Shown here: positions 9,569 to 15,408 of the stretch, piece after piece
Numbering within the stretch: position 1 is the stretch's first letter
How the letters are laid out: every line of letters begins with the position of its first letter
Assembly: GCA_029561735.1 (NCBI GenBank)
Contig: JAKQWZ010000024.1
Location: forward strand, 1 to 58,167
Reading direction: 5' to 3'
Length of the DNA: 58,167 nucleotides
Origin: Candidatus Omnitrophota bacterium
GTDB taxonomy: Bacteria; Omnitrophota; Gorgyraeia; Gygaellales; Profunditerraquicolaceae
Notes under the pieces: generated by a model
Database searches by the model: none
What the model was told of the DNA's origin: nothing
The model's input: only the letters and a program-made list of their open reading frames with translations
Position numbers and translations under genes: made by a program

Positions 9569-9853
9569 CTATTTTATTTTCTTTCTATGCTTATTATCAA
9601 GGACCTGCGCCTCAATATCAATAGATCCTTTTCTTTTAGGAGAAACGTCCATGCCGGAACTGATCTTTTTGACAAAAAACCATGAAGTTAATAAAAACAA
9701 AACGACAAGCGCCGCCTCTATAATCAGCCAGGTCAGCGGCTTAAAAAACATCCAGCCAAAAAAAAGGTTTAAAATGATTAAAAAAGGCAGGAAACAGCCT
9801 GTTTGATTAAGCAATACGAAGGAACCAAATGAGGGCCTACTTGTCTGCGGCAT
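9569..9853 (-). CDS. Small membrane protein
   Basis: Two hydrophobic segments and a basic tail. It fills the gap between co-oriented genes; the start is uncertain. Confidence 0.6.
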   Translation of the reverse strand: MPQTSRPSFGSFVLLNQTGCFLPFLIILNLFFGWMFFKPLTWLIIEAALVVLFLLTSWFFVKKISSGMDVSPKRKGSIDIEAQVLDNKHRKKIK

Positions 9854-10694
9854 GGAGAATCCTCAAAACCTCCTCTGCCTGTTCCAGTTTTTCTTTAAGG
9901 CGGTTATACTCCTGCGCCGAAATTCCTGCCCGGGCAGGGGTATCTGAGAGCTTCTTTAAAAGCGTTTCTTTTTCTTCCAATCTGGCTTTTAAAACTTCAA
10001 GGTCTTTATTCCGGGCGTCCTCTTTTTCTTTATATGCGGCAATTTCCGCTTTCAGCTCTTCAGATTCTTTTCTTAAGGTATCGGTTTCTTGCGCCACAGA
10101 AGGCTGTGGCTGCCGGGTTTTGAGCTCTTCCAGCGCATCTGCCTGTGATTTCAGGGCTGTCCTATATTCGTTTACCTGCGCTTCCAAAGCGGATATTTTA
10201 TCAGTAAGTTCAGCTGATTTCTTTTCCTGAAGGACAAGTTTATTTATTTTTTCTTCAAGCTGGTTTTTCAATTCCGACCTCGTTGAAAGCTCTTTTTCCA
10301 GCTCCCGCTCTTTATTAAAGAGTTTTTCTTTTAGAGCCTGCGTATCTTCGCCAACGGGCTGAGGCGCTTTCATCCTCTCGGCATTAATCTGTTTAAAGCT
10401 ATCCAGTTCGCCTTTAAGCTCTGTTTCTATCTTCTTTGCCAGCTCCAGCTGTGCCTGCAAAGAGCGGTGCTCCAATACAAGTTTCTGCGTTTCAGCCTCA
10501 AGGGCAATTATCTGCTGTTCCAGTTTTTCCGCTGCCATATCGCTGACTGCAGGCAAAACCGGCCTGCTAACGCTTTTATCAATGCGCTGCCCTGAAGAAA
10601 ATAACGGATTTTCTTTATCCAGGACGCTATAGGCAATAAGCCCCAGCGCTGCCAATGCGCATAAAAAAGACAGGACTAAAGGATTCATTTCCAT
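9837..10694 (-). CDS. Membrane-anchored coiled-coil protein
   Basis: N-terminal TM (LVLSFLCALAALGLIAYSVL) followed by ~230 aa of E/K/L/Q-rich heptad sequence. Confidence 0.8.
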   Translation of the reverse strand: MEMNPLVLSFLCALAALGLIAYSVLDKENPLFSSGQRIDKSVSRPVLPAVSDMAAEKLEQQIIALEAETQKLVLEHRSLQAQLELAKKIETELKGELDSFKQINAERMKAPQPVGEDTQALKEKLFNKERELEKELSTRSELKNQLEEKINKLVLQEKKSAELTDKISALEAQVNEYRTALKSQADALEELKTRQPQPSVAQETDTLRKESEELKAEIAAYKEKEDARNKDLEVLKARLEEKETLLKKLSDTPARAGISAQEYNRLKEKLEQAEEVLRILHAADK

Positions 10695-10696
10695 TT

Positions 10697-11080
10697 TTAT
10701 TCCAATTTTAATTTTTTCCGCAGCTCATCAGGCATTGCCTTGGGCTTTAAATCGCATCCTACGCAAACCAAAAGCGACTGGCCTCTGCAGATAAGCACAT
10801 CAGCCTGATTTCTTACTTCATGCTCAAAATTTAATTTCACGCTTGAAAAATCAATAATGTTGCTTGTAATTTTAAGCTCATCAGAGTAACGGGCGGGAAA
10901 TTTATAATCCACTTCCTGATGCGCCACAACAAACATCACGCCCTGCCCTGCAAGCTCTTTAAGCTGCAGGCCTGCTTTCTCAAAATGTTCAGTGCGGGCA
11001 GCCTCAAAGTATTTTAAGTAATTAGCGTAATAGACTACGCCGCCGCAGTCAGTATCATGATAATATATCTTTACTTTCAT
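10697..11080 (-). CDS. ybgC: YbgC/FadM-family acyl-CoA thioesterase (hotdog fold)
   Basis: YYHDTDCGGVVYYANYLKYFEAAR signature. Confidence 0.85.
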   Translation of the reverse strand: MKVKIYYHDTDCGGVVYYANYLKYFEAARTEHFEKAGLQLKELAGQGVMFVVAHQEVDYKFPARYSDELKITSNIIDFSSVKLNFEHEVRNQADVLICRGQSLLVCVGCDLKPKAMPDELRKKLKLE

Positions 11081-11459
11081 TTTTCTTCTCTATCCTGAAA
11101 TCAGAACCAAACACATTTAAATCCCTGTTAAAGTCGTAAACATCATTAAAATCTTCTGTTGAATCGCTTTCGTTTTTACTCATCAGCCCGTGGTCAATCA
11201 TATTAAAAACGATCGCGCCGAAATCAGCTGTCTTTTCAACCCCCCAGCTGTTGAATACCGTCTTGGTCAAGGGGCCGAATTGGTCCATCCCGAACCTTCT
11301 GATGCCCTTTACTAATTCCTGCCCGCTGACATGGCCTTTTCTACTCAAGTCTTTCTGGGTACGCGTTAACGCCAGCATCACAAATTCATACGCATCGGCC
11401 TTGTAACGCGGGTCTTTTTCAACTATCCGGCTTACTTTCTTATTAAAATCGGTTTTCAT
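11055..11459 (-). CDS. Minf_1886-family protein (Verrucomicrobia/Planctomycetes-type)
   Basis: DPRYKADAYEFVMLAL...HVSGQEL...QFGPL...WGV...DFGAIVFNMI pattern. Confidence 0.8.
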   Translation of the reverse strand: MKTDFNKKVSRIVEKDPRYKADAYEFVMLALTRTQKDLSRKGHVSGQELVKGIRRFGMDQFGPLTKTVFNSWGVEKTADFGAIVFNMIDHGLMSKNESDSTEDFNDVYDFNRDLNVFGSDFRIEKKNESKDILS

Positions 11460-11722: not shown

Positions 11723-14700
11723 CTATTCTTTGCTTTCTTTTTCTTTTTGTTTTTGTTCCACGATCCCGGCGGCGATCTCTTTGGGGACCTGGCCGTATTT
11801 CATAAATTCCATGCTGGCGTTCGCCCTGCCGCTGCTTAAAGACCTGAACATTGTTGCATATCCGAACATCTCCGCCAAGGGGACCTCGGCTGCAACCACC
11901 TTTTGATTTGCCTTGGCTTCCATACTTAATATTTTGCCTCTGCGCGAACAGATATTACCGACTATGGCGCTGACAAATTCCTCCGGAGTTGTCACAACCA
12001 GCGACATATAAGGCTCAAGCAAAACAGGCTCGCATTTTAAAAAACCATGTTTAAAACAGTTGATCGCCGCCAGCTTAAAAGCTATATCCGATGAATCAAC
12101 TTCATGATATGATCCGTCAACCAGATTAACCCGGACATCAACAACCGGAAAGCCGGCAAAAGCCCCTTTTTGCATTGCCTCAACCAGGCCCTTTTCAACC
12201 GAAGGAATAAAATTCTTGGGGATAGCCCCGCCTCTTATACTATCAATAAATTCAAGCCCCTTGCCGGTTTCAGCAGGAGAAAGTTCAAATACAACATGGC
12301 CGTACTGGCCGCGCCCTCCTGACTGCTTAACATGCTTATACTCTTCAGTAACCGATTTTAATATAGTTTCGCGGTATGCGACTTTTGGCTGGCCGACTAT
12401 TGCTTCAACCCCGAATTCGGTCTTAAGCCTGTCTACAATTATTTCCAGATGCAGCTCGCCCATGCCGGTAAGGATAGTTTCTTTGGTCTCTTCATCGCTT
12501 TTAACAATAAAAGTTGGGTCTTCTTCCATTAAGCGGTTAAGCGCCTTGCCCAGTTTATCCTGGTCTGAACGGGTCTTTGGGGAAATGCTCAATGATACAA
12601 CCGGGACAGGAAATTCAATTGATTCAAGCAAAACCGGGTTCTCCGGGTCACAAAGCGTATCCCCTGTCATTGTATTATTTAATCCTATGGCCGCAACTAT
12701 CTCTCCGGCTAAAGCATATTCCTTGATCTCGCGCTGGTTTGCATGCATCTGCAATATGCGCCCTACGCGCTCTTTTTTATCTTTAGTAGAATTTAGGACA
12801 TAGGAACCTGCATAAAGGCAGCCGGAATATACCCTTAAATAAACCAGTTTTCCCATATGGGGGTCTGACTGGACTTTAAAAGCAAGCGCGGAAAACGGCT
12901 CGTTTACGTCAGGGGCCCTTTGGCAGGTCTTTTCAAAATCTTCCACATCATGGGCAATTACCGCAGGCAGGTCCAGCGGCGAAGGCAAAAACATAACCAC
13001 TGCATCCAGTAATTTTTGTACTCCCTTGTTCTTAAAGGCTGAACCGCATACAACCGGGACAATCCTGTTGGCTATTACGGCCTTGCGCATCCCGGCGATG
13101 AGTTCTTCAATTGTGATCGTATCCGGAGCCTCCAGAAATTTTTTCGTAAGGGCTTCATCGCAAGAAGCAACCTTTTCTACCAGTTCATGCCTGTATTTAT
13201 CGGATACTTCCTTATAATCTGCGGGGATCTCTTCAATTACAAAATCCTTGCCCATGCCTTCTTCCTGATAGATATATGCCTTCATTTCCAAAAGGTCAAC
13301 CACTCCCCGGAAATTTTCTTCCTGCCCCAGTGGTATTTCAATAGGGGCGGCATTTGCGCCGAGTATATCAGTTATTGATTTGACCACTGAAAAAAAGTCT
13401 GCTCCGGTACGGTCCATTTTATTCACAAAGGCAATCTTCGGCACATTATATTTATTTGACTGGTGCCATACTGTTTCCGACTGCGGTTCAACTCCCCCTA
13501 CTGCGCAAAAAACCGCGACTGCCCCGTCTAATATGCGCAAAGACCTTTCCACCTCAACAGTAAAATCAACATGCCCGGGGGTATCAATCAGGTTTATCCT
13601 GTGGCCCTTCCAAAAACAGGTAGTTGCCGCGGAAGTAATTGTAATGCCTCTTTCCTGCTCCTGCTTCATCCAGTCCATCTGGGCTTTACCGTCATGCACC
13701 TCGCCGATCTTATGCGATCTGCCGGTATAAAAAAGGATGCGTTCGCTGGTTGTGGTTTTACCGGCATCAATATGCGCCATTATGCCGATATTGCGCACTT
13801 TGGTCAGGTCCTGCTTTGGCAAATCTGACGGCTTCTTAGGCGCAGGCTCTTTAGCCGATTCTGCTTGTGGTTCAGGTTCAGGTTTATTCTCAGGTTCAGG
13901 CTCTTTAGCCGGTTCTACTTGAGGCTCAGGTTCAGGTTTTTTCTCGGGTTCAGGCTCTTTAGCCAAGGCTTCAGGCTTGATATTTTCAACAGGGGTATTC
14001 TGCGCTGGCTCCGCAGCAGCTGCCAACTGAATTGGTGCAGAAGCTTGAGCAGCCTCCAATTCTTTTTCAATCAACGTATATTCGTCATTTAATTTATTAA
14101 ATTCCTGCCTGAATTTTTCATGCTCTTTTTTAAAATCATCAAATTTCTCCTGTAAGGCGTCGTATTCCTCTTTAGAAATCCAACCGCTTTTTTCATGCTC
14201 TTTTTTTAAATCATTGAGTTTATCAACCTGCGCCTTTAATTCGCCTGTGCGGGCTTCCAGCTCCCTGCTAAGTTTTTCGCCCTGTGCCTTAAAGCTCAAT
14301 ATCTCTTCAGACTTTTTCCTGCCCTCTTCAGTAAGATTTTTAACCTGACTATCAAGCTCCTGGATTTCTTTGGACAGCCGGACATTCTTGGTAAAAAGGT
14401 CTTTAAGTTCCTTTTCTTTTTCTATGTATTTATTGCGTAAATCCAGATTTTCATCTTTAACCCGCTTTAGCGCTTCATCGCTCTTAGCCACCCACTCCTG
14501 CCTGCGCCTGACCTCTTCCTCAAGCTCGCTGTCGCGCGCTTTTATAGACTGGGAGGAACTTTGCAAATCTGTAAATTCTTTTTTGGTTTTTTCTAATTCT
14601 GCTTCAAGCGCAGATATCCTTGATTCCTGGCGAGTATATTGTTCCAGCTTTGTCGGAGGGATTATGTTTGGGGCAGTGGATTTAACTGGTTTAGTTTTTT

Positions 14701-14788
14701 TTCTTGATGTGCTGGAAGGCGGGCTCATCAGGCCAAAAATAGCAAGCCCTACGCCCAATAACAACAGGCTGGACAGCAGTATTATCAT
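11723..14788 (-). CDS. fusA: Elongation factor G paralog with a ~322-aa N-terminal extension (TM helix + coiled coil + Pro/Glu linker)
   Basis: [57 protein letters not shown] and [11 protein letters not shown] are all intact. The reading frame is continuous from an ATG that overlaps the upstream stop (ATGA at 14785-14788). Confidence 0.93.
13845..13964 (-). repeat. 54-bp (18-aa) tandem repeat encoding the AKEPEPExKPEPEPQxEx linker
   Basis: GGCTCTTTAGCC recurs at 13845, 13899 and 13953 (54-bp period). Confidence 0.85.
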
Positions 14789-15408
14789 TTAGGCTCCGAG
14801 CATTTAGAAGAAATCTGCGGCTTTATTACGCCGCCGGAGATTACAATCTTAAAGGCTTCGGTAACCGAAATATCCAAAAATTTAACTTCCTGCTTTGGGA
14901 CAAAAATAAGAAATCCGCTCAATGGGCTGGGGGTGTTAGGAACCAGGACAGAAATGAAATCTTTGCCCAATACAGAGTCCAAACAGGAAAAATCCTCATT
15001 AGTTACAAAACCCATTGACCATATCCCCTTTGAAGGATACTGGACAAGCACTACGCTGCGAAAACCATAATCCCTTTGCGAAGCAATAAAAGAAACAATT
15101 TGCTTTAATCCCGGGTATATCTTTTTTACCAGAGGCAGGCTGCCAAACCATTTTTCAAAGGGCAAAAGCAGGCGTTTGAAGAAAAGCTGGTTGGCAATAT
15201 AACCGACGAACAGCAAAATGCATGCGGCAATGATAAAACCAACGCCCGGGATATAAAAGCCGAGTTTGTTCTGCAAATAGGTGTTCAGGTACCGGCCCAG
15301 TATATTATCGGAAAAACGAAAAATAGCCAGAAGCACAATTATAGTTATAAAAACCGGGGATACTACAACTAAGCCGGTGATAAAGTATTTTTTTATTTTT
15401 TTAAACAT
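14785..15408 (-). CDS. DUF502-family membrane protein
   Basis: KYFITGL..., [31 protein letters not shown] motifs. Confidence 0.85.

Follow-up and report, generated by a model that had tools for sequence, protein, structure and literature searches.

In textbooks, elongation factor G (EF-G) serves as the prime example of a translation factor that diffuses freely. Membrane tethering of a gene-expression enzyme is known from RNase Y, which possesses an N-terminal transmembrane (TM) helix and a coiled-coil dimerisation region. Here we analysed a gene from an ultra-small, uncultured Candidatus Omnitrophota bacterium (order Gygaellales, family Profunditerraquicolaceae) that was predicted from the sequence alone to encode an EF-G carrying a membrane anchor, in the following called the tethered EF-G. 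It is located in assembly GCA_029561735.1 on contig JAKQWZ010000024.1, whose 58,167 nucleotides (nt) are referred to as the window.

Extra copies of EF-G beside the one encoded in the str operon have been described before. Pseudomonas aeruginosa contains two EFG-I paralogues, EF-G1A and EF-G1B, with divided functions (PMC3832671). Other such copies are spdEFG1/2 and EFG II (PMC3150367). The tethered EF-G is likewise an additional copy for which a specialisation is plausible, but the known paralogues are soluble and none has been described with a membrane anchor. For EF4/LepA, which belongs with EF-G to one family of translational GTPases, storage at the membrane has been reported (PMC4324249). 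LepA, however, lacks a TM anchor and its membrane association is peripheral and reversible. The same topology and tethering logic as in the tethered EF-G is found in ZipA of Escherichia coli, where six periplasmic residues precede the TM helix, and a charged region and an unstructured P/Q linker connect this helix to the head in the cytoplasm (PMC6904479). The sequences of the two proteins are unrelated; the tethered EF-G adds a coiled coil of about 200 amino acids (aa), and its head is a translation GTPase instead of an FtsZ-binding domain. The original prediction had likened the design to that of RNase Y. This resemblance holds as an analogy without homology, since the tethered EF-G has neither KH nor HD domains, a much longer stalk and an added disordered linker. 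Pfam matches to ZipA, KH or HD domains were not obtained for the window protein.

Full-text literature searches returned no description of a membrane-anchored or coiled-coil EF-G, in agreement with the earlier statement that no EF-G of this architecture had been characterised. A survey of translational GTPases (PMC4342817) contains no mention of membrane, transmembrane or coiled coil, and EF-G does not come up in the main paper on Omnitrophota. The architecture has apparently not been described before.

Domain organisation of the tethered EF-G

The window protein consists of an anchor, a stalk and a linker, together 325 residues long, and a C-terminal EF-G head (Table 1). We compared the head with profiles and structures of translational GTPases. 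All five Pfam EF-G domains exceeded their cut-offs, and the EF-G equivalog TIGR00484 matched residues 326-1014 over profile positions 5-690 with 1048.2 bits at a cut-off of 659.4. The head could be aligned end to end with the EF-G of Escherichia coli (4v7d, 874 bits) and of Thermus thermophilus (1dar, 846 bits). Mitochondrial EF-G1 and EF-G2 were much less similar (573 and 499 bits). The tethered protein shares with canonical EF-G (FusA, EFG I) its five-domain fold, its catalytic His, all GTPase motifs and the tip loops of domain IV. In the window protein the GTPase and tip-loop motifs were present (31 protein letters and GSYHEVDSS), and the C-terminal region was folded in the AlphaFold2 secondary structure. 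For 22 members of the tethered clade (see below) we found the G1-G4 motifs and the catalytic switch-II His conserved throughout, with matches to loop 1 of domain IV in 20 and to loop 2 in 21 members.

Other members of the GTPase family were rejected as assignments. The EF-G2/EFG II profile (NF009377) scored 513.6 bits at a cut-off of 890, with 392 bits for T. thermophilus EF-G-2 (1wdt). Tetracycline ribosomal protection protein (NF012153) reached 367.7 bits at a cut-off of 775, LepA/EF4 (TIGR01393) 182.3 bits at a cut-off of 533.9, and the scores of RF3 and BipA were far under their cut-offs. By all sequence tests run, the head classifies as an EF-G of the EFG I type.

For the N-terminal part, structures were predicted with AlphaFold2 using an alignment of 48 sequences of the anchor-stalk module, which gave a mean predicted local distance difference test score (pLDDT) of 86, and an alignment of 38 full-length sequences. 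In the module model residues 47-200 form one unbroken helix with a pLDDT of 96-99. According to the 48-sequence alignment this helix holds a conserved RRQEWV motif with an invariant W99. It ends at a kink with the consensus SEWVP (an SGW/SEW-x-P motif), in which W203 is invariant, and is continued by a second helix with the consensus K.EFN.LNEEYT.LEKELE. The invariant positions of the module are W99, F132, W203, K206, L212 and E236, all of which are found in the window protein. The full-length alignment gave a pLDDT of 31-38 and no secondary structure for linker residues 252-321. Within the family, linkers range from 46 to 199 aa (median 83); Pro accounts for 15% and Asp+Glu for 27% of their residues.

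When averaged over the family, the hydrophobicity along the long helix exhibited a sharp peak at a period of 3.5 residues, with a power of 89 compared to a median of 3.2 and a value of 3.2 also at a period of 3.6. Such a sharp period is indicative of a true heptad coiled coil in one unbroken register, and a heptad coiled coil implies that the stalk is oligomeric.

The orientation in the membrane was derived from the charges around the anchor helix. In all 70 family members considered there were more Lys and Arg residues after the helix than before it, with means of 0.03 before the helix and 5.24 in the 25 aa that follow. Given this bias and the positive-inside rule, the helix is predicted to be a signal anchor of N-out/C-in topology that leaves the EF-G in the cytoplasm, the basic segment at residues 21-46 presumably marking the cytoplasmic side.

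Conservation of the fused reading frame

The window is a metagenome-assembled contig and a tandem repeat lies inside the linker, such that assembly, binning or gene calling might have joined a coiled-coil gene to fusA. The window ORF (open reading frame) contains neither a stop nor a frameshift between stalk and EF-G, and the repeat period of 54 nt is divisible by three. Six metagenome homologues of 999-1076 aa had the architecture in common at N-terminal identities of 31-96%. A degenerate-pattern scan, with one public genome taken per species, then provided 57 loci. Module and EF-G shared one unbroken frame in 48 of them, one being a single-cell genome, and in the remaining nine the module was a stand-alone gene of 236-345 aa. 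A single frame was also found in about 100 genomes of the window's family.

Near-identical strains (at least 90% identity) from three independent assemblies (NCBI, ENA, Logan) all had the long ORF. The Logan strain (P0159) carries exactly one 18-aa linker repeat fewer than the window protein; the length of the linker is thus polymorphic within the species. All 13 substitutions between these two proteins are located in the N-terminal 325 residues, and the EF-G part of 696 aa is identical.

The recurrence of the frame in 48 species across many studies and assemblers, the agreement of the three assemblies of the same species and the separation of the tethered EF-G as its own clade from the str-operon fusA make a joining artefact extremely improbable. 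We consider it nearly certain that the architecture is real and conserved. The original prediction is thereby supported in several respects: the junction is unbroken in the three assemblies and the 48 species; the order of TM anchor and RKKTK, coiled coil, Pro/Glu linker and intact EF-G was recovered by AlphaFold2, periodicity and domain searches; the proposed N-out/C-in topology agrees with the charge bias of the 70 proteins; and the suggested search for long EF-G homologues with an N-terminal TM helix is answered by the 48 species-level Omnitrophota loci.

The record titles of the 57 loci read mostly Candidatus Omnitrophota, with some "uncultured Planctomycetales" and one "Margulisiibacteriota". 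Fusion-bearing metagenome-assembled genomes (MAGs) labelled in these two ways are those of loci L048, L053, L055, L058 and others. The N-terminal sequence at locus L058 is identical to that of the long EF-G of genome G002, which is grouped in the window's family. The odd titles are probably label discrepancies.

Three EF-G copies and the probable origin of the tethered one

The MAG of the window has a size of 1.23 Mb and is 82% complete. It holds a second, divergent EF-G on contig C4. Genes for EF-Tu (tuf) and S7 (rpsG) were found nowhere in this MAG; the str/S10 region is simply unassembled. In relatives within the family three EF-G copies are the rule: one of about 700 aa (1020-1065 bits), a long one of 1007-1137 aa (1025-1056 bits) and a divergent one of about 660 aa. 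The copy of about 700 aa lies within rpoC-rpsL-rpsG-fusA-tuf-rpsJ-rplC-rplD, where S12, S7 and EF-Tu were confirmed by Pfam. By a hand count this canonical copy is also present in all 17 fusion-bearing genomes that are at least 90% complete. The tethered EF-G is an accessory third EF-G, which in contrast to the canonical one sits outside the str operon, and not a relocated housekeeping copy.

That the tethered copy would be the sole EF-G was rejected for this family, as the MAG lacks tuf and rpsG as well and relatives carry a fusA in the str operon. The original prediction had stated that the gene is not the str-operon copy because rpsL, rpsG and tuf are not nearby. The statement stands, but as neither rpsG nor tuf occurs anywhere in this MAG, it had to be settled in relatives, where the canonical copy fills that slot. 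Similarly, the separate canonical fusA that had been suggested as a check was absent from the window's MAG and was found in the str operon of relatives.

To place the copies relative to each other we calculated a maximum-likelihood tree from 71 EF-G domains. The tethered proteins formed a clade with a Shimodaira-Hasegawa-like approximate likelihood ratio test (SH-aLRT) support of 100, and the canonical proteins from all families of the order formed another with a support of 99. The two clades are about 0.58 substitutions per site apart, and each has its own signature of 15 protein letters. Mean identities amounted to 72% among tethered proteins, 77% among the canonical proteins of the family and 54% between the two groups. 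As two unfused proteins of about 698 aa from other families belong to the tethered clade, the duplication is probably older than the fusion, the alternative being a secondary fission.

Among 78 genome pairs with both copies, the median ratio of the distances between tethered and between canonical heads was 1.08. The stalk diverged more than two times faster than the head (p-distance 0.63 compared to 0.29). By these rates the tethered head is under the constraint of a canonical EF-G. The protein seems to have arisen when an old EF-G paralogue became fused to the stalk module, an older stand-alone membrane protein of this order.

The divergent paralogue has the P-loop GHAQSGKTS, a Tyr in place of the catalytic switch-II His (DTPGYADF) and about 50 fewer residues in the G' region. 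Including partial matches, it was found with 59-76% identity in 137 of the order's 201 genomes. In a table compiled by hand for the window's family, it accompanied the fused module in 89 of 103 genomes and the stand-alone module in 2 of 30 (Fisher's exact p = 4e-16, uncorrected for phylogeny and with most stand-alone cases from one genus). An appreciable number of its orthologues in relatives, for instance in genomes G011, G076, G146, G124 and G070, had one in-frame TAA, TAG or TGA. These stops could be a start-region artefact of six-frame read-through or gene decay. In the window's MAG a separate 602-aa open frame on contig C62 gave EF-G/EF-Tu-like G-domain matches and is possibly LepA.

The anchor-stalk module as a gene family

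The anchor-stalk is an independent gene family that is more widespread than the fusion. Counting fused and stand-alone forms together, its profile matched 190 of the order's 201 genomes, and it matched 346 representatives in a library of 1.84 billion proteins. In a sample of the whole phylum the module was found in only 15 of 141 genomes, belonging to the window's order and to five further families in the same class. From these further families, two proteins (1081 and 1056 aa) are TM-coil-linker-EF-G fusions with the IGIM signature. Elsewhere in the order, other families encode the module by itself, as a protein of 210-285 aa whose gene lies beside unrelated ones. A sublineage of the family, mostly genus g24, has a stand-alone module of about 290-345 aa in which the Pro/Glu tail is kept.

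The usual slot of the gene in relatives is pheS-pheT-rarA/MgsA-[gene]-exported cyclophilin-uvrD, and this slot is the same for fused and stand-alone module genes. The EF-G part was therefore acquired or lost without a change of location.

Searches for the identity of the module gave no Pfam family over the cut-off but only sub-threshold coiled-coil matches. A profile search of the PDB returned only generic coiled coils with E values of at least 0.0026, and Foldseek found no match in the PDB. A distant paralogue is encoded in the window itself, 1 kb from the tethered EF-G gene (Table 1), and is without both conserved Trp motifs.

Among the ten longest intermediate matches of the module in the representative library, where matches are mostly fragments, eight were truncated EF-G fusions. 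Other heads were seen in the same library only on two distant MshEN/PilZ proteins, which hints that stalks carry various cytoplasmic heads. These two proteins, P0140 (locus L162:482-2656) and P0091, resemble the module in their N-out anchor, and their coiled coil, which is repeated, is akin to its first part. The fused domains are receptors for cyclic diguanylate (c-di-GMP), with MshEN in both proteins and PilZ in P0140 only. The genomic context of P0140 (riboflavin genes and nusB) is uninformative.

Neighbourhood and features of the window

In the window the gene is flanked by DUF502/PGI on one side and YggU on the other. The ATGA overlap of the DUF502 stop with the EF-G start, as proposed earlier, is present in the sequence (aaATGAtaa, read as GAG CCT AAA TGA and ATG ATA ATA). 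An adjoining DUF502, PGI or YggU gene was found in none of the 57 related public loci. A functional coupling with DUF502 through the ATGA overlap as a general feature was rejected, because the pairing is absent from these loci. The pairing is lineage-specific, and the neighbourhood in the window is a local rearrangement.

Two further observations concern the region 3' of the gene. A 134-aa ORF (window positions 11055-11459, minus strand) between the YggU-like and thioesterase genes has no Pfam match. At locus L071 the thioesterase and coiled-coil arrangement of the window recurs 3' of the fused gene.

Table 1. Coordinates of the tethered EF-G gene, its parts and associated features. Positions refer to the window unless stated otherwise; residues refer to the tethered EF-G.
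Feature	Position	Strand	Details
Tethered EF-G gene	11723..14788	-	ATG-initiated single ORF, 1021 aa
GGAG Shine-Dalgarno-like motif	14794..14797	-	5 nt 5' of the ATG, within the 3' end of the DUF502 gene
DUF502 membrane-protein gene, upstream	14785..15408	-	TGA overlaps the ATG of the tethered EF-G; context only
Signal-anchor TM helix, residues 2-20	14729..14785	-	Predicted; uncharged before the helix; AlphaFold2 models
Basic disordered juxtamembrane segment RKKTKPVK..., residues 21-46	14651..14728	-	pLDDT <50 at residues 26-43
Coiled-coil helix 1, residues 47-200	14189..14650	-	Predicted, ~23 nm; AlphaFold2 and heptad periodicity
Kink SGWIS, residues 201-205	14174..14188	-	Alignment and AlphaFold2
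Coiled-coil helix 2, residues 206-250	14039..14173	-	Predicted; alignment, AlphaFold2 and periodicity
Disordered Pro/Glu-rich linker, residues 251-325	13814..14038	-	75 aa; pLDDT 31-38
54-nt tandem repeat in linker	13843..13964		In-frame, 2.3 copies, 18-aa unit
Complete EF-G, residues 326-1021 and stop codon	11723..13813	-	Pfam, TIGR00484
EF-G domain G/G'	12980-13801	-	Pfam GTP_EFTU, residues 330-603
EF-G domain II	12647-12898	-	Pfam EF-G_D2, residues 631-714
EF-G domain III	12392-12613	-	Pfam EFG_III, residues 726-799
EF-G domain IV	12032-12388	-	Pfam EFG_IV, residues 801-919
EF-G domain V	11771-12025	-	Pfam EFG_C, residues 922-1006
Stand-alone TM and coiled-coil protein	9837..10694	-	285 aa; distant anchor-stalk paralogue, E = 6.5e-15, hhalign probability 97.6%
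Third, divergent EF-G paralogue	MAG of the window (G000), contig C4:6010-7977 (outside the window)	-	655 aa; best match NF009381, 837 bits

Discussion

The best explanation for these data, to which we assign a probability of roughly 0.6, is an active tethered EF-G that works on ribosomes of the peripheral cytoplasm. The gene encodes one polypeptide in which an EFG-I-type EF-G is predicted to be suspended from the inner membrane on its cytoplasmic side. It is connected through the anchor helix, an oligomerising heptad stalk (about 23 + 7 nm) and an acidic Pro/Glu linker of variable length. The head is expected to be catalytically competent, i.e. to bind the ribosome and to hydrolyse guanosine triphosphate (GTP) like EF-G. 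It may then act on peripheral ribosomes in translocation and/or in recycling that depends on the ribosome recycling factor (RRF). Each stalk would hold two or more heads, and the tether would keep a pool of EF-G, as well as transiently engaged ribosomes, at the membrane-bound stalk protein. Chimeras with L9 fused to the N-terminus of EF-G are found among solved structures (4wpo and related entries), which we take to have been solved on ribosomes; binding of the ribosome should thus be compatible with an N-terminal fusion.

The reach of the tether can be estimated by simple arithmetic. A helix of 154 aa at about 0.148 nm per residue extends over about 23 nm, and the second helix of 45 aa over about 7 nm. 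As a random coil the 75-aa linker would add about 7 nm; fully extended, it would add at most about 27 nm. Omnitrophota cells are about 0.2 µm across (PMC10066038). In a cell of this size a reach of 35-55 nm would cover most of the cytoplasm, such that retention or positioning of the factor is likelier than a strict restriction to translocon-bound ribosomes. The earlier idea that the protein serves only ribosomes making membrane, pilus or secretory proteins is weakened, because so long a tether would not limit EF-G to a thin layer at the membrane. A rescue of membrane-stalled ribosomes had also been suggested as a possible role.

Several points weigh against an active tethered EF-G. Genomes of the g24-type sublineage have the canonical EF-G as their only EF-G. 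The EF-G part was lost again in this sublineage, i.e. the fusion is dispensable there, which sets it further apart from canonical EF-G. The 21 clade-specific residues of the tethered EF-G are mostly conservative and provide no pointer to a particular sub-function; a specialisation for translocation or for recycling is not readable from the sequence. In the window genome a GTG with a weak AGGA 10 nt 5' of it directly precedes RNIGI, and could in principle be the source of a soluble product. Finally, the stalk may be the functional core which the EF-G serves.

This last possibility leads to a different explanation, in which the stalk is a membrane scaffold with a role related to the envelope or to division, and the EF-G acts as a sensor of GTP or ribosome state or as a ribosome recruiter, not as a translocase. 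It draws on the occurrence of the module in nearly the whole order, its stand-alone existence in other families, its persistence after loss of the EF-G and its invariant Trp and other motifs. The unchanged syntenic slot, the second stand-alone paralogue in the window and the c-di-GMP receptor domains on distantly related anchors point in the same direction. However, constraint on the EF-G equals that on the essential canonical copy and all its catalytic and tip-loop motifs are intact, which seems beyond the needs of binding or sensing, and the module matches no known scaffold family. Overall we regard a stalk-centred function as possible, though on balance unlikely. Somewhat more doubtful still is an interpretation along the lines of a Rosetta stone. 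Here the stand-alone stalk would be a membrane docking platform for EF-G or ribosomes, the fusion would hard-wire this interaction, and these cells of about 0.2 µm would carry out part of their translation at a fixed distance of about 30 nm from the inner membrane, on the oligomeric stalks. On this interpretation the His-to-Tyr EF-G paralogue could be a functional partner of the fusion.

Alternatively, the fusion might be a device for delivery or co-expression, where cleavage of the linker or translation from an internal start releases the working EF-G as an ordinary soluble second EFG-I paralogue, specialised for translocation or recycling. The divided functions of the P. aeruginosa pair provide a precedent (PMC3832671), and two unfused members exist within the tethered clade. 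The long disordered linker would be accessible to proteases, and the GTG before RNIGI offers a possible start in the window genome. Against this, candidate internal starts are unconserved among homologues, where no conserved internal start was found, and the junction shows no conserved cleavage motif beyond the normal EF-G N-terminus. Moreover, the frame has been kept in more than 100 species while the linker drifted freely in sequence and, between 46 and 199 aa, in length, which speaks for selection on the covalent link itself. We therefore judge a soluble product to be decidedly unlikely. A periplasm-spanning protein like TolA or TonB, N-in/C-out with a rod, a spacer and an EF-G outside the cytoplasm, is superficially suggested by the combination of TM helix, long helix and a spacer of the Glu-Pro/Lys-Pro kind. 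Such an arrangement is hardly credible, since all 70 proteins lack positive charge before the helix and have a basic cluster after it, EF-G requires GTP and ribosomes, and the head is under canonical EF-G constraint. Neither a TolA nor a TonB domain was found in the window protein with Pfam.

The anchor-stalk defines a so far unannotated family of membrane-stalk proteins. A membrane-anchored EF-G, predicted to be oligomeric, has been kept under the constraint of an essential copy in more than 100 species. If the active tethered EF-G holds true, it would amount to an experiment of nature on how translation is organised in space within bacteria, and would show that a leashed factor can carry out translocation or recycling. 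It would also provide a handle on how ribosomes are arranged relative to the envelope in ultra-small cells. With a free, a tethered and a His-to-Tyr form, these bacteria possess a three-paralogue EF-G system whose division of labour is testable in vitro.

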